A stretch of DNA of 61,718 nt, filler included, from Sphacelaria rigidula (GCA_964200075.2; 10 parts of 10 records of this genome joined end to end with filler, not necessarily neighbours in it), one strand, 5' to 3'. Counted from the whole stretch's first letter, positions 4,601 through 43,058 are shown. Program-made: numbers and translations. Notes: generated by a model not told the origin, from the sequence alone.

Positions 4601-5613
4601 CAGCAGGTTCTCTGGATTCTGCTCACACGTGGCGATGCGGAGTAGGAGGTAAGGAGTGGAAGATGAACAGCGCGGAGAGGCACGGAGGGAACAGGGGGTA
4701 CTTTGAACACACACAGTATCCGAACTTGCAAAGTTCGGAATGGGAGAACGGGGAAGGACTCGTTGAGTTGCTGTCACTGCAAAGTCCATCTCCCCCAAGC
4801 TTGCAAAGTGGAAAAGGCTGACGTATTTCTCGAAGGGTAGCTAATCGCCCGGTGTAAGGCGATATCGATACATACACACGGATTCCAGCCTCAGTAGGTG
4901 AAGAAAGTTTATACCACAAATATTGACTCGACATCCGTTTCTGGTGAGCTTGCCTACCAATACCAACACCGCCATTTTCGGTCTGGAAAATATCTGCAGA
5001 ACACACTAGATGATCCACGCCTCCATGCGCTTGAATTGATGTTTTCCGCCTCTGAGGTCATCAGGGTCGCAATTTGATCGCCAGTTTTTTCTCGATTTTT
5101 CGAAGGAGCTTGAGCACAAAAAACTGGTATAGCCACCCCCGACGATATCTCTCGAAACCGCGTCAACCGTCGGCCCGTTCTGCACAAGCTATGAACTCAC
5201 CTCGTACATAAACAAGTCGTACAGGTAGTCAAGTACGTCGTACTCGCAAGTTGGTCCTCCGCCCCAGGAGTTGGAGTGAATCTTGGCTCCCGTGTCGAGT
5301 GCCGCCTCCCACAGATAATTACCAGCTAAATCTGGAAGCAACGTTCCCAAACTGTTGAAGTATGCGACGTCAAAAATTGCGAGTTTCGCGCCGGGAGCCA
5401 CGCCATTGTTTTCAATCAGATTCTCCGAGACGTCCCCACTCAAACAGTTGGGCGAGTCGGGTCCGAAGCCGTCACAGGAGAACGTGGGGCAATAGGTTTC
5501 GATGTCGAAAAACTCGTTGGTCACGAAACTGTAGGCTTCACTCGGCGTCATGCATTGGCCCGCACAAGCGTTGAATTCGTCATTGCCGCAGGTCGACGTA
5601 ATGAACGGGCTGC
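1673..5613 (-). CDS. Subtilisin-like serine peptidase (S8, KP-43/TagC-like), partial; exons 5613-5201, 4618-4465, 4068-3833, 1774-1673
   Basis: All four exons have AG/GT boundaries and compatible phases. Motifs: GVAPGAKLAIFD, AKIHSNSWG, LLLFSAGNSG (oxyanion Asn), SPATAKNVLTIGS, FSSYGHTLDGRIKPELVAPG, and catalytic Ser in AGTSMACPAAAG. I did not find the Asp/His exons or the 3' exons in this contig. Confidence 0.93.
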
Positions 5614-6083
5614 CTGTCGTTTTGAAGAGAGATCGTGCGAGGAATATTTGATGATAGCCACGTTAACCGCTTGCGTGAAGTCTCCCTCTAGCACGTTTCA
5701 CCACGCGAAATTGCACGGCGAAAGTAGTTCAAGTACACAATATATGACTGAGCAGTATCTGTACTGACATGAACGAATCAATGTGTCGTACTACGACATG
5801 AAGTTGTACTTTGAGGGCGTGGTCTCGGGCTCGAGCCAAGAAGCACGTTCTTGCGTAACGACTTCACACTGATGTGGACGACAGAACGCTGCAATTGTTC
5901 ACGACAACCAAACCCGTCAGCCTGGACACTATATTGCTATTTCACATACATGAGGAGAAGAGATATATCACACAATGCTGCAAACTATCCAGAGGTAAGG
6001 GTAATGTCGCGTTTCCCCCCCCCCACCCCCCCCTCTCTCGCTAGCGAAGCATGGGCAACTGCACCAAAACACAACAAAAAAAA

Positions 6084-26184: not shown

Positions 26185-27248
26185 TGTGGCGAAATCACGT
26201 CGTCACGGTTGAGTATATGGTGGATCCTGGATGATGACCAGGGGACAAGGGCATCCTGTGGATGATGACCCTTGCTGTGTAGCCCAGGCCTGATGGTACG
26301 GGGTTGCAGCTGTTTACTTCAGGAATGATGAGGTGTTGTGAAGGCTAACAACTGAGACCCTGAGGCCAGTGGAACTGGGGAGTCCCTCAACAGCATTTAG
26401 ACGCTGCAGTACTAGCAACCTGCTGGCGTCACAAAATCGATATTAGTGCTAGTGCTAGGCGTGCTAGTTGGTGCTATCGTTTGAGACTGCTGAAAGTTTT
26501 TCAGCAGGCAGGAGTCTGAACAGCTTGTGATTAGCTTCGGGCATAGAGCTTCACGGACGCGTGAGGAGGTTTCAAGCTGAGGTAGCTGCAAAGGCGGCTG
26601 GCCCGTGATTGATCCAGACTGGGGATTTGCTGGAGCTGCGTACAGTGGGTGTTCATAGGACCCCAGGGCTGTGTGAAGCGGCGAAGAAAGCAGGTGTGAC
26701 CTGAAGTTCGAGAGGGTTTTAAAAATCTTCGATTTTCCGCTCGAAAATGTCGACTACCGAGGTACCGGCAATAGAGCCAACGGAAACGACTGTAACCCCA
26801 GTCGTTCAAAGGGAAGAGTTGCGGCCGCCCAGTTACGGGAATTTGTATTCTGAGGGTGCTTCGTTTTACACGAAATACGTGGAATACAAAAGGAGGGTGG
26901 ATCATGCGAATGCAGGGGGTGCGGTAAGGCATCGAGTGGTATCCATGGCGAAAGTCGTGCCCACCCCCCTCCAACGCGTTTTTGCGGGGAGATTCCACAA
27001 AAAACACACAATAACGCCGCCGCAATTAGTTGCGGCGATCAGAAAGCATGCTGGCATGCGGCTGGTCCTTGCCACTGTTGTGGCTAGGTCGGCTATTACG
27101 CGCGCGATTGCCTAGCGTCTCCCGGTGGAAAGTCTGGGCAGTCTCATGCCGCGCGCCACCAGCATCGTCAGCACAAGGGCAAAAGACGAGGTAGTCGTGG
27201 CGGCGGCGGCGGCGGATCCTCCAGCGGTGGATGTGCACAGTCGAGTTC

Positions 27249-27296
<48 letters not shown>

Positions 27297-30200
27297 GCGT
27301 CAGCAGGGGTCCGGTTCTGGGTCTGGCTCAGCCGCAGAGGCTGCTGCTCCGCAACGGGCGGTGCAGGTGGGACTGACCACTCTAGTGTCGGGCTAAGTGC
27401 CGGCGCAGCCGGTAGCAGAGCAAGGCGAGACGCCTGCGGCGGAGCCGGCCGGATTTCAGCTGAAATTTGGATCCGCTGCTGCGTCGGCCGGAGTACCGCT
27501 AAAATTTGGTTCTGCGGGGGGGGCTTCGTGCCCGCCGGCGGTGCCGGTGACCCCAGCGGGGGCGCCTATGTCTGCGTCACGCGCGCAGCCGTGGCGCCAA
27601 GTGGGGATCACGACCAATCAGTCGGGGGAACAGGTGCCGATCGAGTATCAGGGCAAATATATTCCTGCAGAGGTATATCTCCCGAATCACCGGGCGCTGG
27701 GAGCCATTGCGGTAGAGGCTAAGTGGGATTCTGGCGCCCACTGGACGGGTCATGTGAGTCTGTCGGTACATATTGTAGAGATGTTGGAGCGTCTTCTCCC
27801 GGGTGTGCCGCTGCGCACTCCGTTTTCGCTCGGGGCGCGGCAGGCCGTCACCGCGTCGGGTCAGCATATTTACGTCACAGAGCGTACTGTTCCGCTACAG
27901 CTGACTTTGACGACTTCCTGGGGGCCGGCGCAGTTGCCTCCGATCTCGTTTGCGATCATGCCGGGGTCGGATGGCGTTATTCTTCTGGGGTTACCGATGG
28001 TTCAGGATATTGGAGTCAACGCTCGGCGGTTGTGGGGCTCCATGAAGACGCGGATGTCTCCGCCTGGTCCACGCTTGGAGACGCCCGCTGTTTTGGGCAG
28101 TCGTCGCGTGAGCTTGTCGGTGGATACTTTTCAGGATGGAGGGCAGGTGACCGAGGAGCGGGATGCGGCGGTGGAACGCTTGGTAGAGCGCGGCCCGGAA
28201 ATATTTATTGATTCGGCGGAAGAGGAGTCCGCTTGGAAGGTCGCGCTGGAGGAGAGCGTGACGGATGCTAGGGCGAAAAGCCTCAGCGTCTCAAAAGCGG
28301 AGCACCTGCGCGGTATATTGCATTGCCGCGTCAACGCGTTTCGTCGTGCGCTGCGGGGGGATCCCCCTGCGCGCGTGGAGCCCATGCGTGTTCAGCCAAA
28401 ATCTGGGGCGTCCGCGGTGAAGACGAAGCCGCGGCGGTACGATCCAGTGAAGTCGAGTTGGTTGGCATTGTGCATGGCGGCTCTTCTGGCGCTCGGGTTG
28501 GTGTTACGGAATTTGCAGGCGGGGTGGTCCAGTCCAGGTATGGGGTTTCCGAAGAAGGCTGCATCGTGGACGGAGGGCAGGCTGCAGGCGTGGGCGGCAG
28601 CGAAGGATCTGGTGGCTCATGCCGTGACGCTGCCCCATCCTCGTCCTGATTGTCAGGTGCCAATGTTTCCGGATGCATTTGAGTGCCATTGGGGTAGTTT
28701 TGTGACGCAGGTGCCTGGTGCCGGTTGAAGACATGACGCATGAACCACTGGATTTTCTGAGTGGTAATTTCAAGGGTTCACAGATACGTTGGGCAACCAT
28801 TGACAAGGAAGGTTTTGCTATCGTGAGCACTTTTCGTCGTCTCGAGCATCTATTATGGAATGGCGTACACATTTTCACGGATCACCGAAATTTAGTATAC
28901 ATTTTCAACCCGGAGGCATGCGTGACGTCTGTGTCGAAGGCGTTGGCACAGCGATTGGAGGGGTGGAAACGTGTATTAGGACAGTATCGGTACAAGATTT
29001 GTCATATTTCGGGTGAACGTAACGCGTGGGGTGACTTGCTGTCGCGCTGGGTAAATATTCCGGCTTTGCCTGCGCGCGCCATGGCTATGTATGATCTGTG
29101 CGAACCTGATGACTCGATGCCGTCCAAATCTGTTGTCCGCCAAGCGTAGCGAAAAGACCTTGGGGTCGAAGATTTGGATGTGCAAGCTTTCCAGTCGGAC
29201 GTTGGTACTGCTATCTTGGATAATGAAGGTAGGTTTCGTGTGCATGTGCGTGGCCGAAAGGTTTTGTGGATTCCGAGTTCTGACAAGCAGTTGCAGGTAC
29301 GTTTGATGATTTGCGCGCACATGCGCGACGCCGGGCATGGTGGTGTGGCTGCGACGCTCGTGCGCTTGCAAGAGTTTTGTGTCTGGCAGAGGATAGAAAC
29401 TCATGTGCGCGAATTTGTCCGCCAGTGTCTTCACTGTGCTGACTCGAGGGCGGGCGATGTTGTTCCCCGCCCGCTCGGCGAAACGGTCCATGGGATCACG
29501 CCGAATGAAGTCGTTCATTTTGACTTCTTGTACGTGGGCGAGAGCGGCCCGCTAGCTTCCCAAGGTTTGTCGGAGGATGCGGGGTTTCGATATATTTTGG
29601 TGATCATGGATTATTTGAGCAACTTTGTGGCTCTGGAACCAGTAGCAGTGTGTACTGCTGATTCGACTGCTGCGTCTTTTCTGATTTGGTGCAAAACTTT
29701 GGGGGTGCCCCGTGTGTGGGTGAGAGATACTGACACGCATTTCAAGAATGCGATCTTGGCCCGATTGCGAGAGGCTTTGCGCGTTGATCACCAGTTGCGG
29801 TAGCGTGTTCTCTGTGGTCTAACGGTACGTGCGAACGCATGGTCAAGGAAGTAGTTCGTGCTCTTCGCTCTGTTCTTCTCCAGCAGCGTAGAGCGGTTTC
29901 CGAGTGGGTGGGCGTGTTGCCGCCGGTGCAAAGGGCGCTCGATACAGTGTATCGACGTCGTTATGATCGTATGACGATAGTGGGATTCAGTTGTGACTTG
30001 CTAAATCGTTTTGGCGTTAGTTTCTGAGTGTCAAACTTGTTGCTCGATTCTCGTCCAACGCGCTTTGGGGGTGCTGTGGCGAAATCACGCCGTCACGGTT
30101 GAGTATATAGTGGATCCTGGATGATGACCAGGGGACAAGGGCATCCTGTGGATGATGGCCCTTGCTGTGTAGCCCAGGCCTGATGGTACGGGGTTGCAGC

Positions 30201-30323
30201 TGTTTACTCCAGGAATGATGAGGTGTTGTGAAGGCTAACAACTGAGACCTTGAGGCCAGTGGAACTGGGGAGTCCCTCAACAGCATTTAGACGCTGCAGT
30301 ACTAGCAACCTGCTGGCGTCACA
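26185..30323 (+). mobile_element. Ty3/Gypsy LTR retrotransposon copy B, complete ends, non-autonomous (RT core deleted)
   Basis: 249-bp LTRs at 26185-26433 and 30075-30323 (TGTGGCG...CGTCACA; 5 transitions counted by eye), with flanks GGAC/GGAT. Gag starts at 26747. Protease WDSGAH, RNase H (FPDAF..WG, DKEGFAIV, FTDHRNL, DLLSRW), integrase HHCC and core at about 29300-29960. Confidence 0.95.
27251..27295. repeat. (AGC)15 microsatellite in the gag-protease linker
   Basis: Perfect AGC run. Confidence 0.9.
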
Positions 30324-30568
30324 GGATCTACTCAAGTTGACGATACACGGCTACAGCAGATCCACACAATATTGTCCACTCATGGCAGTAGCAGCACACA
30401 ACAGACCGCACGCCACACAGCACAGCAGTAAAACAGTACGCCCGGAGTTATACGCAACTCGACACCATGAGTAGCGCAGTAACTCGTGGTGTACGTGCTG
30501 CACCCGCCACCGTCAATTCCGCATCGCAGTGTTTTCCCTCGTATGGTAAGTCAAGGTGGAAATACAAC

Positions 30569-30703: not shown

Positions 30704-31081
30704 GAGGCTGTATCCATGAATAACCCTTAGACCGTGATGCGGGTAGTCCATCTGTATCACGCACACGTTTTTCAAGTGAATATTGATGCCGATTCAGCAG
30801 GTGACCTACCCTNNNNNNNNNNNNNNNNNNNNNNNNNNNNNNNNNNNNNNNNNNNNTTAATTAATTAANNNNNNNNNNNNNNNNNNNNNNNNNNNNNNNN
30901 NNNNNNNNNNNNAGTTGCTCACACCACAGCTTTCCCAGTTTCCCGAATGAACCCGATGTAAGCATATCACTGTGAAATGCAGATCATCCTGGTAACACAC
31001 GGCACCGCCGCTGAATGAAAAAAAAAAAATGACGAAAAATGTAGTGCATAATATATGACCTTAACGACGGACGAAAAAAAA

Positions 31082-31469: not shown

Positions 31470-31885
31470 CAGGTCGTACTCAAATTTTGAATTTGGGGTA
31501 GATTGAGTACAACCTCGAATACTCTACTCAAATATTGGGTGATCACTCTTAGCAATACTTGAGTGCTGAGTATCACTTGGGTATGACCTCAATACTCTAC
31601 TCGATTGTTGGGTAGATTGAGTACGACCTCAAATACTCTACTCAAATACTAAGTAAGCACTCTCACGAGTATCACTTGGGTATGACCTCAATGCCCTACT
31701 CAAATTTTGGGTCAGTACTCTCAAGAGTATCACTTGGGTGTGACCTCAAATACTCTACTAAGTTTTGGGTAAGTACTCTCCAAAGTATCACCTGGGTATG
31801 ACCTAAAACACTATACTCATTTTCTGGGTAAGTTGAGTGTGGCTTCTCATGAACACCGAGTATTGAGTATACTCGCCTCGACCTG
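31470..31885. repeat. TACTC/GAGTA subrepeat array with CAGGTCG...CGACCTG ends (MITE-like)
   Basis: Repeated GAGTATCACTTGGGTATGACCTCAA(A)TACTCTACTC units and 7-bp inverted ends. No TSD. Confidence 0.7.
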
Positions 31886-32928: not shown

Positions 32929-33423
32929 CATGGATTTGTTCTGTAGGGTACGTTTTTGTATTCCTGAGGGAATTGCCGGGGCATTACCCGTACCCGACAG
33001 CTCTGTGATATCTGCTAGCCTCCCGTACCGGTACCCGATAGTCCCCGGGGTATTTGCCCGGGTACTGACCGCATCCGGGTTCTGTAAGTTTTGTAAGCTT
33101 CCCGTACCCATAACCAACAGTTCTGTAAGTTCTGTGAGCCTCCTATACCGATACCGGATATATATGATATACACGAATTTTTAACCCGTACCCGGGGCAC
33201 GGGTATACCCTTTTAGAAAATATCCGGTTGCGGGTAAGGGTTTCTGTACAACCTCCATACCGTACTCGACGTGTTTTATAAGCCCTGTAAGACTTGCATC
33301 CCGATACTCGATGGTTCTGTGGGTTCAGGAAGACTTCCACACCGGTACTCGATAGTTCTTGAAGTCCCGGAAAAAATGTCATACCCTACCGAACATACCC
33401 GTACCCTACAGAACAAAACCCAG
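32929..33423 (+). mobile_element. hAT-type MITE, short relative of 13156-14777
   Basis: TIR core TTTGTTCTGTAGGGTACG / CGTACCCTACAGAACAAA, flanks CAAAAATG / CAAAAAATG, and the same TACCCG/TTCTGT arrays. Confidence 0.85.
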
Positions 33424-41522: not shown

Positions 41523-43010
41523 TTAACAGTAGTTTCGTGAGATTGAGAGTCTACGATACGATAGAGAGTAGGCTTTTCATTCGATTCAGCTGCCGGTTAT
41601 GCCTGCATCATTAATGGAGAAAACTCTTACCTCGGACATTGGTGAAAAATCCTGCCGGCAAACCTGACAATGTTTCCGTGAAATTGAGCGTTGAAGGTAC
41701 GATCGAGAGTGAGGTCTTATTCATAACATGACTCGCTTCGCCGGTTCCGATAATGAGACGAAAAGTTTACATGTGTAGCATGTTGAACATTCCTGTCACC
41801 CGTTGCCTGAATGGAATGGCAGAATAATGTTGGACAATGTTGCGCGCTGGCCCACAGGTCGCATTTGTGGAAAAATGCACCGTTCAAGATGTCTCCAAAG
41901 TAGTGTGAGTCGTGCGGTTCGAGTAAAAGATACGATTTAGCCAGGTTGTGCCCGAATTCATTCGCAAATGCAGTTGATGCCACCATTCGTCGTGTGGACT
42001 TGGGACTCGTGGGTATCTTAAAATCACTTTTCTGCTCACAAATTTCGCCCAGTTTCCGTCTTTATTTTTAAAAGCGCAAGTCATCGCGTGTGATATGATT
42101 GCTGATATCCCGCCTTCTCGTGCCGAGAAAAGTCGCAAAGCGTGGTGGGACCCTGGGTTCTGTTCCATGATCTCACCCTCGATGGGAGCGGATCATAACA
42201 AATTCTCTTGCACGAAGCCAATGGAGCGCCTCCCGTCTATGAGCTGCAGCAAATCGATTTTGCCGGGGACTCTCGCCAACCGCATCGGATATCCCAAAAT
42301 GCACTCAAAACATGTGCCGACGGACCCATCAAGAATAGCTCATAACCCATCAACACGGGAAAACAAATACTACCGCATCAGCAAATTAGCTGTAAAACAC
42401 CGGGAGCACTTGGAACTGGCGACCCAAAGAAAAAACATCATGCTGTGCTGAACAGCAATCGACGGTACAACGAACACCGGACGCTAGGTCTCGGTAGACT
42501 CCAAGATCACTGCTCCTGCTTCACCTCTACCCCATCCGTGCTCTCCTCCTTGAGGGACAGTACGTGGCCTACACAAATCGCTGACTCTGCGCAATTTGAT
42601 GTCACGCCGAGCGTCGACACGTGAAAGAGATGCGTCTTGCACGTCTTCTGCATGATCCTGCGGAAATGATTGATCGGGGGCAGCGGCAAAGAGTACGGGT
42701 GATCGCAAGAGTTAATGGGGCAGGTTACAGTGGATAAATCGGGCGCTCCAGTACAGCTGGGCGAATTTCAACAACTTCAAATTAGAAACTGGCGCAAACA
42801 GGACGTCCTTCTGTCCCGTGTGGGGATGATGCTTCCAAACGTATCCATTCACTTGGCACCACGTGAGGACGATACCGACATATTCAACACTAGGCGGGTA
42901 CTCACGATCTAAGAGACTTGGACTCATCATGCCGAGCAGCTGGGCACTCTCGACTCCGGCGACATCAGACACGACATCCTCCAAGGCCTTGTCGAGCTCG
43001 ATCGTGTCTC
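41523..43010 (+). mobile_element. Short-LTR-like family: ~116-bp terminal unit ending CA, a TGGTG site resembling a primer-binding site (PBS), and an internal region with no recognised protein
   Basis: It interrupts the Gypsy integrase. ...CTCGGACA-T-TGGTGAAAAATCCTGCCGG lies at 41631-41658. Homologous to 19187-20623. Confidence 0.55.
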
Positions 43011-43058
43011 CGTCGAGGAGTTTTGTCTGGTTCGTGGAAAAGGCGCCAGCGAAAGGAG

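Follow-up and report, generated by a model that had tools for sequence, protein, structure and literature searches.

How a retrotransposon without a reverse transcriptase (RT) could have multiplied, and why it should still carry other pol sequence, are questions raised by two copies of a Ty3/Gypsy element that bears long terminal repeats (LTRs), in a 61,718-nt stretch of Sphacelaria rigidula DNA (the window). One, copy B, occupies positions 26185..30323; the other, copy A, lies at 20990..24557 (start approximate), and both are on the + strand. From DNA sequence comparisons, we consider it highly probable that these copies belong to a non-autonomous lineage that arose by deletion from a chromodomain Ty3/Gypsy family resident in the genome, mobilised in trans by RT-intact relatives, here called helpers, and recombining with them.

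We compared the copies with P0001 and P0002, RT-intact proteins of public assemblies that are 69–71% identical to copy B. The copies lack exactly 229 residues, in frame, from just past the PKK motif to just ahead of the RT connection, including the WVDD palm motif; the RT core is thus absent, as a first-pass annotation of the window had proposed. In copy B the junction lies at 28549..28568 (+), with the break after 28558 and a loss of 687 nt (229 codons); copy A has the same junction, from 23724, and both read CCGAAGAAGG|CTGCATCGTG, in agreement with the in-frame jump that the annotation had placed at the same point in both. Relative to intact loci, the gap in the DNA is 687 nt in 24/30 cases and 684–711 nt in the remaining 6/30. 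The deletion is carried by all 87 RT-less copies of the full set described below, and has the exact size in 85. Both window copies also have DAF in place of DAS in RNase H, again as annotated, a replacement found in 47/85 RT-less copies compared with 2/53 intact copies.

The exact 20-mer junction occurs 101 times in the genome (reversed control, 0) and a loose junction pattern 223 times (control, 8); the RT-less family comprises about 200 copies. We surveyed LTRs and target-site duplications (TSDs) in 62 RT-less copies, namely the first 60 of the 100 listed junction places together with copies A and B. Both LTRs could be delimited in 27 copies, and 26 of these have a TSD of their own: 17 are perfect 4-bp duplications, representing 15 different tetramers, and nine match at 3/4 bases, while one copy failed. 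In the other 35/62 copies an end was not detectable, and many of the fetched stretches run into a contig end. Divergence between paired LTRs ranges from 2% to 26%, with a median of 6.4% over the 27 pairs; the 26% value comes from L098, whose LTRs are probably mis-paired. The 249-bp LTRs of copy B differ at five positions, all transitions, between flanking GGAC and GGAT, matching the roughly five transitions and near-perfect 4-bp TSD noted at first pass. Hence, an essential enzyme is absent, yet the family has made many independent insertions.

A gap so precise could mark a spliced intron, in which case the RT-less copies would be retrocopies of spliced RNA. The junction is indeed exact and in frame, and its deleted side reads ...AAG|G.... 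However, the removed segment begins with AC and ends with GC in intact copies, neither strand offers GT/GC...AG ends or another possible cut, and the other family deletions likewise lack splice ends at the junctions inspected. Moreover, in the junction flanks the RT-less copies fall into one diverged clade, unlike the outcome of repeated splicing. The AC...GC ends, without splice dinucleotides, led us to reject an intron origin, which the annotation had suggested checking; we regard it as extremely unlikely. Still less credible, to the point of being negligible, is that the junction reflects segmental duplication or collapse of the RT region during assembly, the two outcomes that the annotation had named as fatal to its reading. 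The assembly is certainly fragmented (27,214 contigs), but the junction lies on ~100–200 contigs with unrelated flanks, copy B differs from its nearest sampled relative by at least 6%, RT-intact and RT-less forms coexist, and an RT-skipping joint is also found in contigs of sequencing runs X1 and X15. Duplication and collapse are refuted by the distinct TSDs. The preferred reading is therefore that of a genuine deletion, borne by many separately inserted copies.

No microhomology was found at the RT junction when intact loci were compared. In X6, a possible RNA run, the RT-skipping joint was absent among the 15 of 143 joints listed; neither this run nor contig depth, which does not measure copy number, was used as evidence. 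Contigs of run X1 (organism A) and, compared with L124, of run X15 (organism B) pass over the RT region at a common position (recorded as 'between: not known'); as a lead only, the RT-less lineage may be shared between species and predate one of them. Two RT-less copies, L005 and L028, lie in opposite orientation on one contig (G000:C17177), and the L105 locus holds, besides its RT-less copy, a distinct partial match to the RT core.

An RT-core search of the same genome gave 145 scored matches. The intact elements are 5.8–6.0 kb long, fall into two subfamilies (I1 and I2), and have LTR ends, primer site and polypurine tract (PPT) in common with the RT-less copies; the RT-intact relative that the annotation had recommended looking for is thus present alongside them. 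The two kinds of element are of similar age, with LTR divergence of 3–22% in five intact pairs against the 6.4% median of the 27 RT-less pairs. None of the sampled intact copies is free of stops, and stop density is alike at 5.2 (RT-less) and 4.8 (intact) per 1000 codons. Intact elements carry protease, RT, RNase H and integrase in that order between their LTRs, and copy B retains the order protease, RT remnant, RNase H, integrase; TG...CA LTRs, a primer site (non-canonical), a PPT and a TSD are likewise as expected of Ty3/Gypsy. Named relatives come from the brown algae Sphacelaria (72% identical) and Cladosiphon (40%), and from an oomycete. P0002 is a single open reading frame (ORF) of 1661 aa with a weak Chromo match (E 0.0013, short of the Pfam cut-off). 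With a single gag-pol ORF, a C-terminal chromodomain (that weak match) and a 4-bp TSD, the family is probably a brown-algal, ECR-like chromodomain Gypsy, a likeness drawn from published descriptions. As far as the available text of the sources goes, Ectocarpus ECR-1 has one gag-pol ORF of 1699 aa, a C-terminal chromodomain, 273-bp LTRs and a 4-bp TSD in 6.6 kb (PMC11541908, bioRxiv 10.64898/2025.12.07.692804, PMC12477816); the family studied here resembles it in its single gag-pol ORF (1661 aa in P0002), chromodomain, LTRs of ~250 bp, 4-bp TSD, length of 5.8–6.0 kb and oomycete relatives. No RT-less ECR derivative is described in the available text, and the words 'non-autonomous' and 'deletion' do not occur in that of bioRxiv 10.64898/2025.12.07.692804.

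We compared 87 RT-less copies (60 found by the exact junction, 25 further best matches to copy B, and copies A and B) with 56 intact copies (31 from a protein search and 25 from an I2 DNA search). In a tree of the junction flanks the label RT-less or intact changes only 2 times (shuffled mean, 43). The number of changes is 9 for the linker and 24 for the protease (shuffled, 39), and is at chance level in gag (23 versus 25), integrase (26 versus 30) and the C-terminus (10 versus 10). Sequence next to the junction is of I2 type in 86/86 typed RT-less copies. In gag, by contrast, 22/59 typed RT-less copies, including copy B, are of I1 type, compared with no such mosaic among 33 typed intact copies (Fisher p = 2e-5). 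The protease is indistinguishable from that of present I2 elements in one subgroup (18 copies, with copy A) and from that of I1 in another (21 copies). Subgroups Db and Dc show no net protease divergence from helpers, and the same is true of integrase in all subgroups. Two later deletions, of 432 nt in gag and 357 nt in RNase H, are found in all four combinations, and the RT-intact copies L156 and L160 each bear one of them. These patterns indicate that the RT deletion arose once, in an I2-type element, and that the mosaics were formed when the junction later recombined, by a mechanism to which we return, onto I1 as well as I2 backbones in gag and integrase. Co-packaging followed by template switching is the standard explanation for such mosaics. 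In the available text of PMC4079200, template switching is invoked for grass CR elements.

If the leftover pol were still needed as protein, internal branches of the RT-less trees should resemble those of the helpers. Using a separate tree for each region, we fitted dN and dS (nonsynonymous and synonymous divergence) to its branch lengths by least squares, with a transition weight of 3. L136 served as coordinate reference, and codons 59–84 were left out of dN/dS because of a local frameshift in L136, of which the apparent common stops at gag codons 65–71 are an artefact; stops at codons 1363–1425 were discarded, the earlier reference L129 having a frame fault in the integrase core. Terminal RT-less branches, the post-insertion baseline, have dN/dS of 0.76–1.02. 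Internal branches of the intact lineages are constrained (RT, 0.12; RNase H, 0.12; RT flank, 0.17; integrase, 0.24; protease and linker, 0.37). For those of RT-less copies the values, with wide intervals, are 0.53–1.16 across protease, linker and RT flank, 1.0 for RNase H and 0.43–0.64 for integrase; the RT-less stem gives 1.8, with a very wide interval. Summed by hand, the RT-less internal rows for protease, linker and RT flank together with the stem give 0.84, so that the dN/dS comparison suggested at first pass sets ~0.8 in RT-less copies against 0.1–0.4 in intact lineages. Between the protease and the RT N-terminus, codon changes present in at least 8 RT-less and 0 intact copies are nonsynonymous in 24 cases, synonymous in 2 and a stop in 1. 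In the largest subgroup (39 copies, with copy B) the protease has drifted, with net dN/dS of ~0.6 compared with 0.23 between helpers. On these ratios, the enzymes are not maintained as they are in helpers, and the leftover pol is best described as a remnant under relaxed selection. Passive carriage, with renewal by recombination, would let it persist without upkeep of the proteins. The annotation's statement that the lineage 'kept' protease, RNase H and integrase must be revised accordingly: what stays is remnant DNA, partly refreshed and often lost again.

Losses after the RT deletion are extensive. Gag has a shared deletion of 432 nt in 30 copies, RNase H one of 357 nt in 46 and another of 336 nt in 4, and the integrase C-terminus one of 676 nt in 13 and another of 271 nt in 2; the RNase H core is also missing from 46/87 RT-less copies and the middle of gag from 30/87. 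With indels counted from codon 95, seven inherited ones specific to RT-less copies lie upstream of codon 1431 out of 1661, and every one has a length divisible by three: 687 nt (87 copies), 357 (46), 432 (30), +9 (37), −3 (33), 336 (4) and +3 (4). Among private indels only 59/212 (28%) are in frame (43/173 small indels and 16/39 large deletions). With the 676-nt deletion taken as a failure, the frame is preserved in 5/6 of the events found in at least 8 copies (p = 0.009, Fisher; p = 0.018, binomial).

Two accounts of what an open frame might be for have to be weighed. The RT-less copies could be semi-autonomous, making working Gag, protease and integrase and borrowing RT/RNase H only. The frame does run open through the junctions, the catalytic residues are mostly present (protease Asp in 43/52 and first integrase Asp in 47/51, counted without L072, L100 and L105), integrase has the internal dN/dS of 0.43–0.64 given above, and subgroups Db and Dc bear helper-like gag and protease. 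However, the helper-like segments are accounted for by recent capture; the 39-copy subgroup combines its drifted protease with a 9-nt insertion by the active site and lacks the gag middle in 26/39 copies; and the 13 copies without the integrase C-terminus have further changes in common. We consider semi-autonomy unlikely. Alternatively, as for the mouse element IAP 1Δ1, the stability or packaging of RT-less RNA might depend on translation along a single open gag-pol frame, so that selection preserves the frame but disregards the amino-acid sequence. This would account for the contrast between inherited (7/7) and private (28%) indels and for the 5/6 common events in frame. Three small shifts common to 4–5 copies look recurrent, two having carriers that are not a clade and the third occurring also in intact copies. 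There is, in addition, the precedent of the IAP 1Δ1 fusion protein, which acts in cis according to the available text of PMC6466679. Against this, the test is post hoc with few events; large shared deletions alone are in frame in 4/6 cases (p = 0.19); frameshifts do result from the deletions of 676 nt (13 copies) and 271 nt (2 copies), both of them beyond the integrase core; and codon-periodic microhomology may favour in-frame deletions. A stop at protease codon 445 is present in 8/40 copies of one sublineage, compared with a 4% background (p = 1e-4); its carriers are not a clade and are no closer kin than random sets (p = 0.36). Lesion density also stays up in copies with similar LTRs (intercept of 6 per 1000 codons, in a regression without L098 on account of its doubtful 26% LTR pair), which fits either a noisy LTR clock or broken templates; given the like stop densities of RT-less and intact copies, a burst of similar age with a noisy LTR clock fits as well. 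We put this account slightly below an even chance: the frame bias is suggestive of translation in cis aiding mobilisation, by analogy with IAP 1Δ1, from a post hoc comparison that has the counter-signs just listed against it.

Taken together, the data fit a trans-mobilised deletion derivative of a Ty3/Gypsy parent family with a single gag-pol ORF, ~250-bp LTRs and a 4-bp TSD. One 687-nt deletion took the RT core out of an I2-type element, leaving an RNA in which LTRs, primer site and PPT are retained. Intact relatives of subfamilies I1 and I2 would supply the RT that copies this RNA, in particles that also hold their own RNA, and template switching would join the junction to helper segments of gag, protease and integrase from both subfamilies; the later losses within gag, RNase H and the integrase C-terminus would have spread likewise. 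Whether a weaker pressure also holds the reading frame open is, in our estimate, about a coin toss. A single old deletion, amplified in trans by a helper that exists, is what the annotation had envisaged, and the 101 exact and 223 loose junctions, the separate TSDs and the 145 RT-core matches bear it out. Several points weigh against this reading. The 87 RT-less and 56 intact copies were chosen by similarity searches in a fragmented assembly, and the RT-less clade has a node support of only 0.73 and includes one I2 copy. Gene conversion, or ectopic recombination among the copies in the genome, could also have produced the mosaics, and co-packaging and transposition are steps that we infer from sequence. 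In integrase, internal dN/dS (0.43–0.64) is below the terminal value of 0.84, so that some constraint there is possible. Net divergence from I2 beside the junction has dN/dS of ~0.3, a value to which evolution on the side of the helpers, or a parent outside the sample, also contributes and which is not cleanly that of the RT-less side. A bolder version, in which the lineage sheds RT, RNase H, Gag middle and protease while selection keeps one long frame, and the junction outlives its backbones, possibly across a species split, is in our view tentative and somewhat less probable than its negation.

The window consists of ~6.1-kb contigs strung together, with linkers every ~6.17 kb (for example 24631-24730 and 30814-30913) that read N-run/TTAATTAATTAA/N-run; because these are separate unplaced contigs, ordered by length, adjoining parts of the window are unlinked. 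Copy A is on contig C22361 and copy B on C22362. All features of copy B given here are on the + strand. Its left TSD, GGAC (26181..26184), has its partner GGAT at 30324-30327. The 5′ LTR (26185..26433, 249 bp, TG...CA ends) is followed by a putative primer-binding site (26436..26448), present also in RT-intact copies, whose start is not TGG: the position reads ATCGATATTAGTG here and at 21237-21249 in copy A. Folding of U5 with the primer site was not significant (z −1.4), and a search of the window for tRNA genes found none; a tRNA fragment or self-priming may provide the primer. An I1-type gag N-terminus is fused to the zinc knuckle (26747..27115) by the family 432-nt deletion near 27060, on top of which a private 1-nt deletion has cost the gag frame. 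A (CAG)n tract that varies between copies lies at 27250-27296, in the gag-protease linker. The linker, aspartic protease and N-terminal RT remnant up to PKK occupy 27397..28558, with the protease DSG at 27727 adjoined by the 9-nt insertion common to 37 copies. Beyond the junction come the RT connection and RNase H (28559..29146, DAF at 28672), where a private 20-nt deletion near 28716 breaks the frame, and the integrase zinc-binding and core domains (29150..29975), with private lesions. The integrase C-terminus and chromodomain are gone through the 676-nt deletion common to 13 copies (junction near 29975). A PPT-like site (30055..30074), also found in intact copies, precedes the 3′ LTR (30075..30323, 249 bp). 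Copy A, whose LTR ends at 21234, has a full-length I2-type gag, protease, the RT junction and a 357-nt RNase H deletion near 23900, with 605 codons open across both deletion junctions, and is truncated inside integrase near the contig end. The annotation described what it saw accurately but missed the loss of the RNase H core in copy A and of the gag middle and integrase C-terminus in copy B.

Elsewhere in the window, a ~900-bp dispersed repeat (19141-20024 and 42158-43055) is present in opposite orientation on two contigs, 92% identical, with ORFs that have no Pfam match. Degenerate tandem repeats occupy 13214-14628 and 32985-33370, and 31568-31828, with periods of ~41 bp and 58 bp; RT-less copy L107 is flanked on both sides by similar-looking tandem repeats. 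A weak subtilase (Peptidase_S8) match at 5192-5662 (−; E 2e-4) is perhaps a host exon. Recurrent insertions of ~215-270 nt and ~450 nt, in RT-less and intact copies alike (L070, L085, L094, L126, L132, L058 and others), are probably short mobile elements.

The following comparisons draw on the available portions of each source. TRIM, LARD and TR-GAG elements are likewise non-autonomous, with LTRs, primer site and PPT, and their classes have been argued to be points on a continuum (PMC13570524). The RT-less family differs in measuring 3.4–6.0 kb and retaining pol remnants: its internal region is recognisable gag-pol, in contrast to TRIM and LARD, and it has integrase and RNase H remnants and has lost the gag middle in 30/87 copies, in contrast to TR-GAG. 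By defining features the family is none of these three, but its layout does not fall outside known kinds, as the annotation had implied: non-autonomous families with pol remnants are reported from sugar beet, sorghum and Ectocarpus, and IAP 1Δ1 is closely analogous. In sugar beet, 15/115 LTR families are non-autonomous with decayed pol remnants (PMC13570524); they resemble the present family in their patchy RT, RNase H, integrase and chromodomain remnants, traceable autonomous partner and size between TRIM and LARD, whereas one exact junction followed through two helper subfamilies, and a frame bias, do not feature in the available description. Ectocarpus Gypsy-6b_Ec32, with complete ends, 468-bp LTRs and a pol of 'only integrase domain' in 7.7 kb (PMC12477816), is also a brown-algal Gypsy with reduced pol, of a different family by its size. 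RT is absent or truncated in sorghum CR2-Sb-B and its recombinants and in wheat Angela, Sabrina and WHAM (PMC4079200, PMC9744471), which similarly co-evolve with autonomous partners and, in sorghum, also recombine with them; Sabrina and WHAM, however, lack both RT and integrase, and non-autonomous Angela copies carry numerous frameshifts and stops, contrary to the frame bias seen here.

Helper-dependent LTR derivatives are therefore well known and the basic finding is ordinary; the frame-bias signature is modestly new. A literature search covering few subscription journals found no serial frame-preserving deletions in a non-autonomous Gypsy. The parasite and its helpers are near enough to trace one junction through two helper subfamilies along a recombination gradient, and this gradient would explain why useless pol sequence persists. 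The closest parallel is mouse IAP 1Δ1, whose fusion protein, the product of an in-frame deletion, works in cis (PMC6466679). Both are high-copy non-autonomous subtypes, mobilised in trans, that go back to one in-frame internal deletion. IAP is an env-less endogenous retrovirus with a 1.9-kb deletion over part of gag and pol, and an open fused ORF whose cis effect was shown experimentally, whereas here a Ty3/Gypsy element lost the RT core alone first and underwent more deletions later, and the cis effect is only inferred. If true, the frame bias would be a natural evolutionary record of packaging being licensed by translation in cis and not by the resulting protein; the frame of inherited versus private indels would offer a simple genomic test for any non-autonomous family; and the cis-translation effect of IAP 1Δ1 would extend to Ty3/Gypsy elements of a distant lineage.

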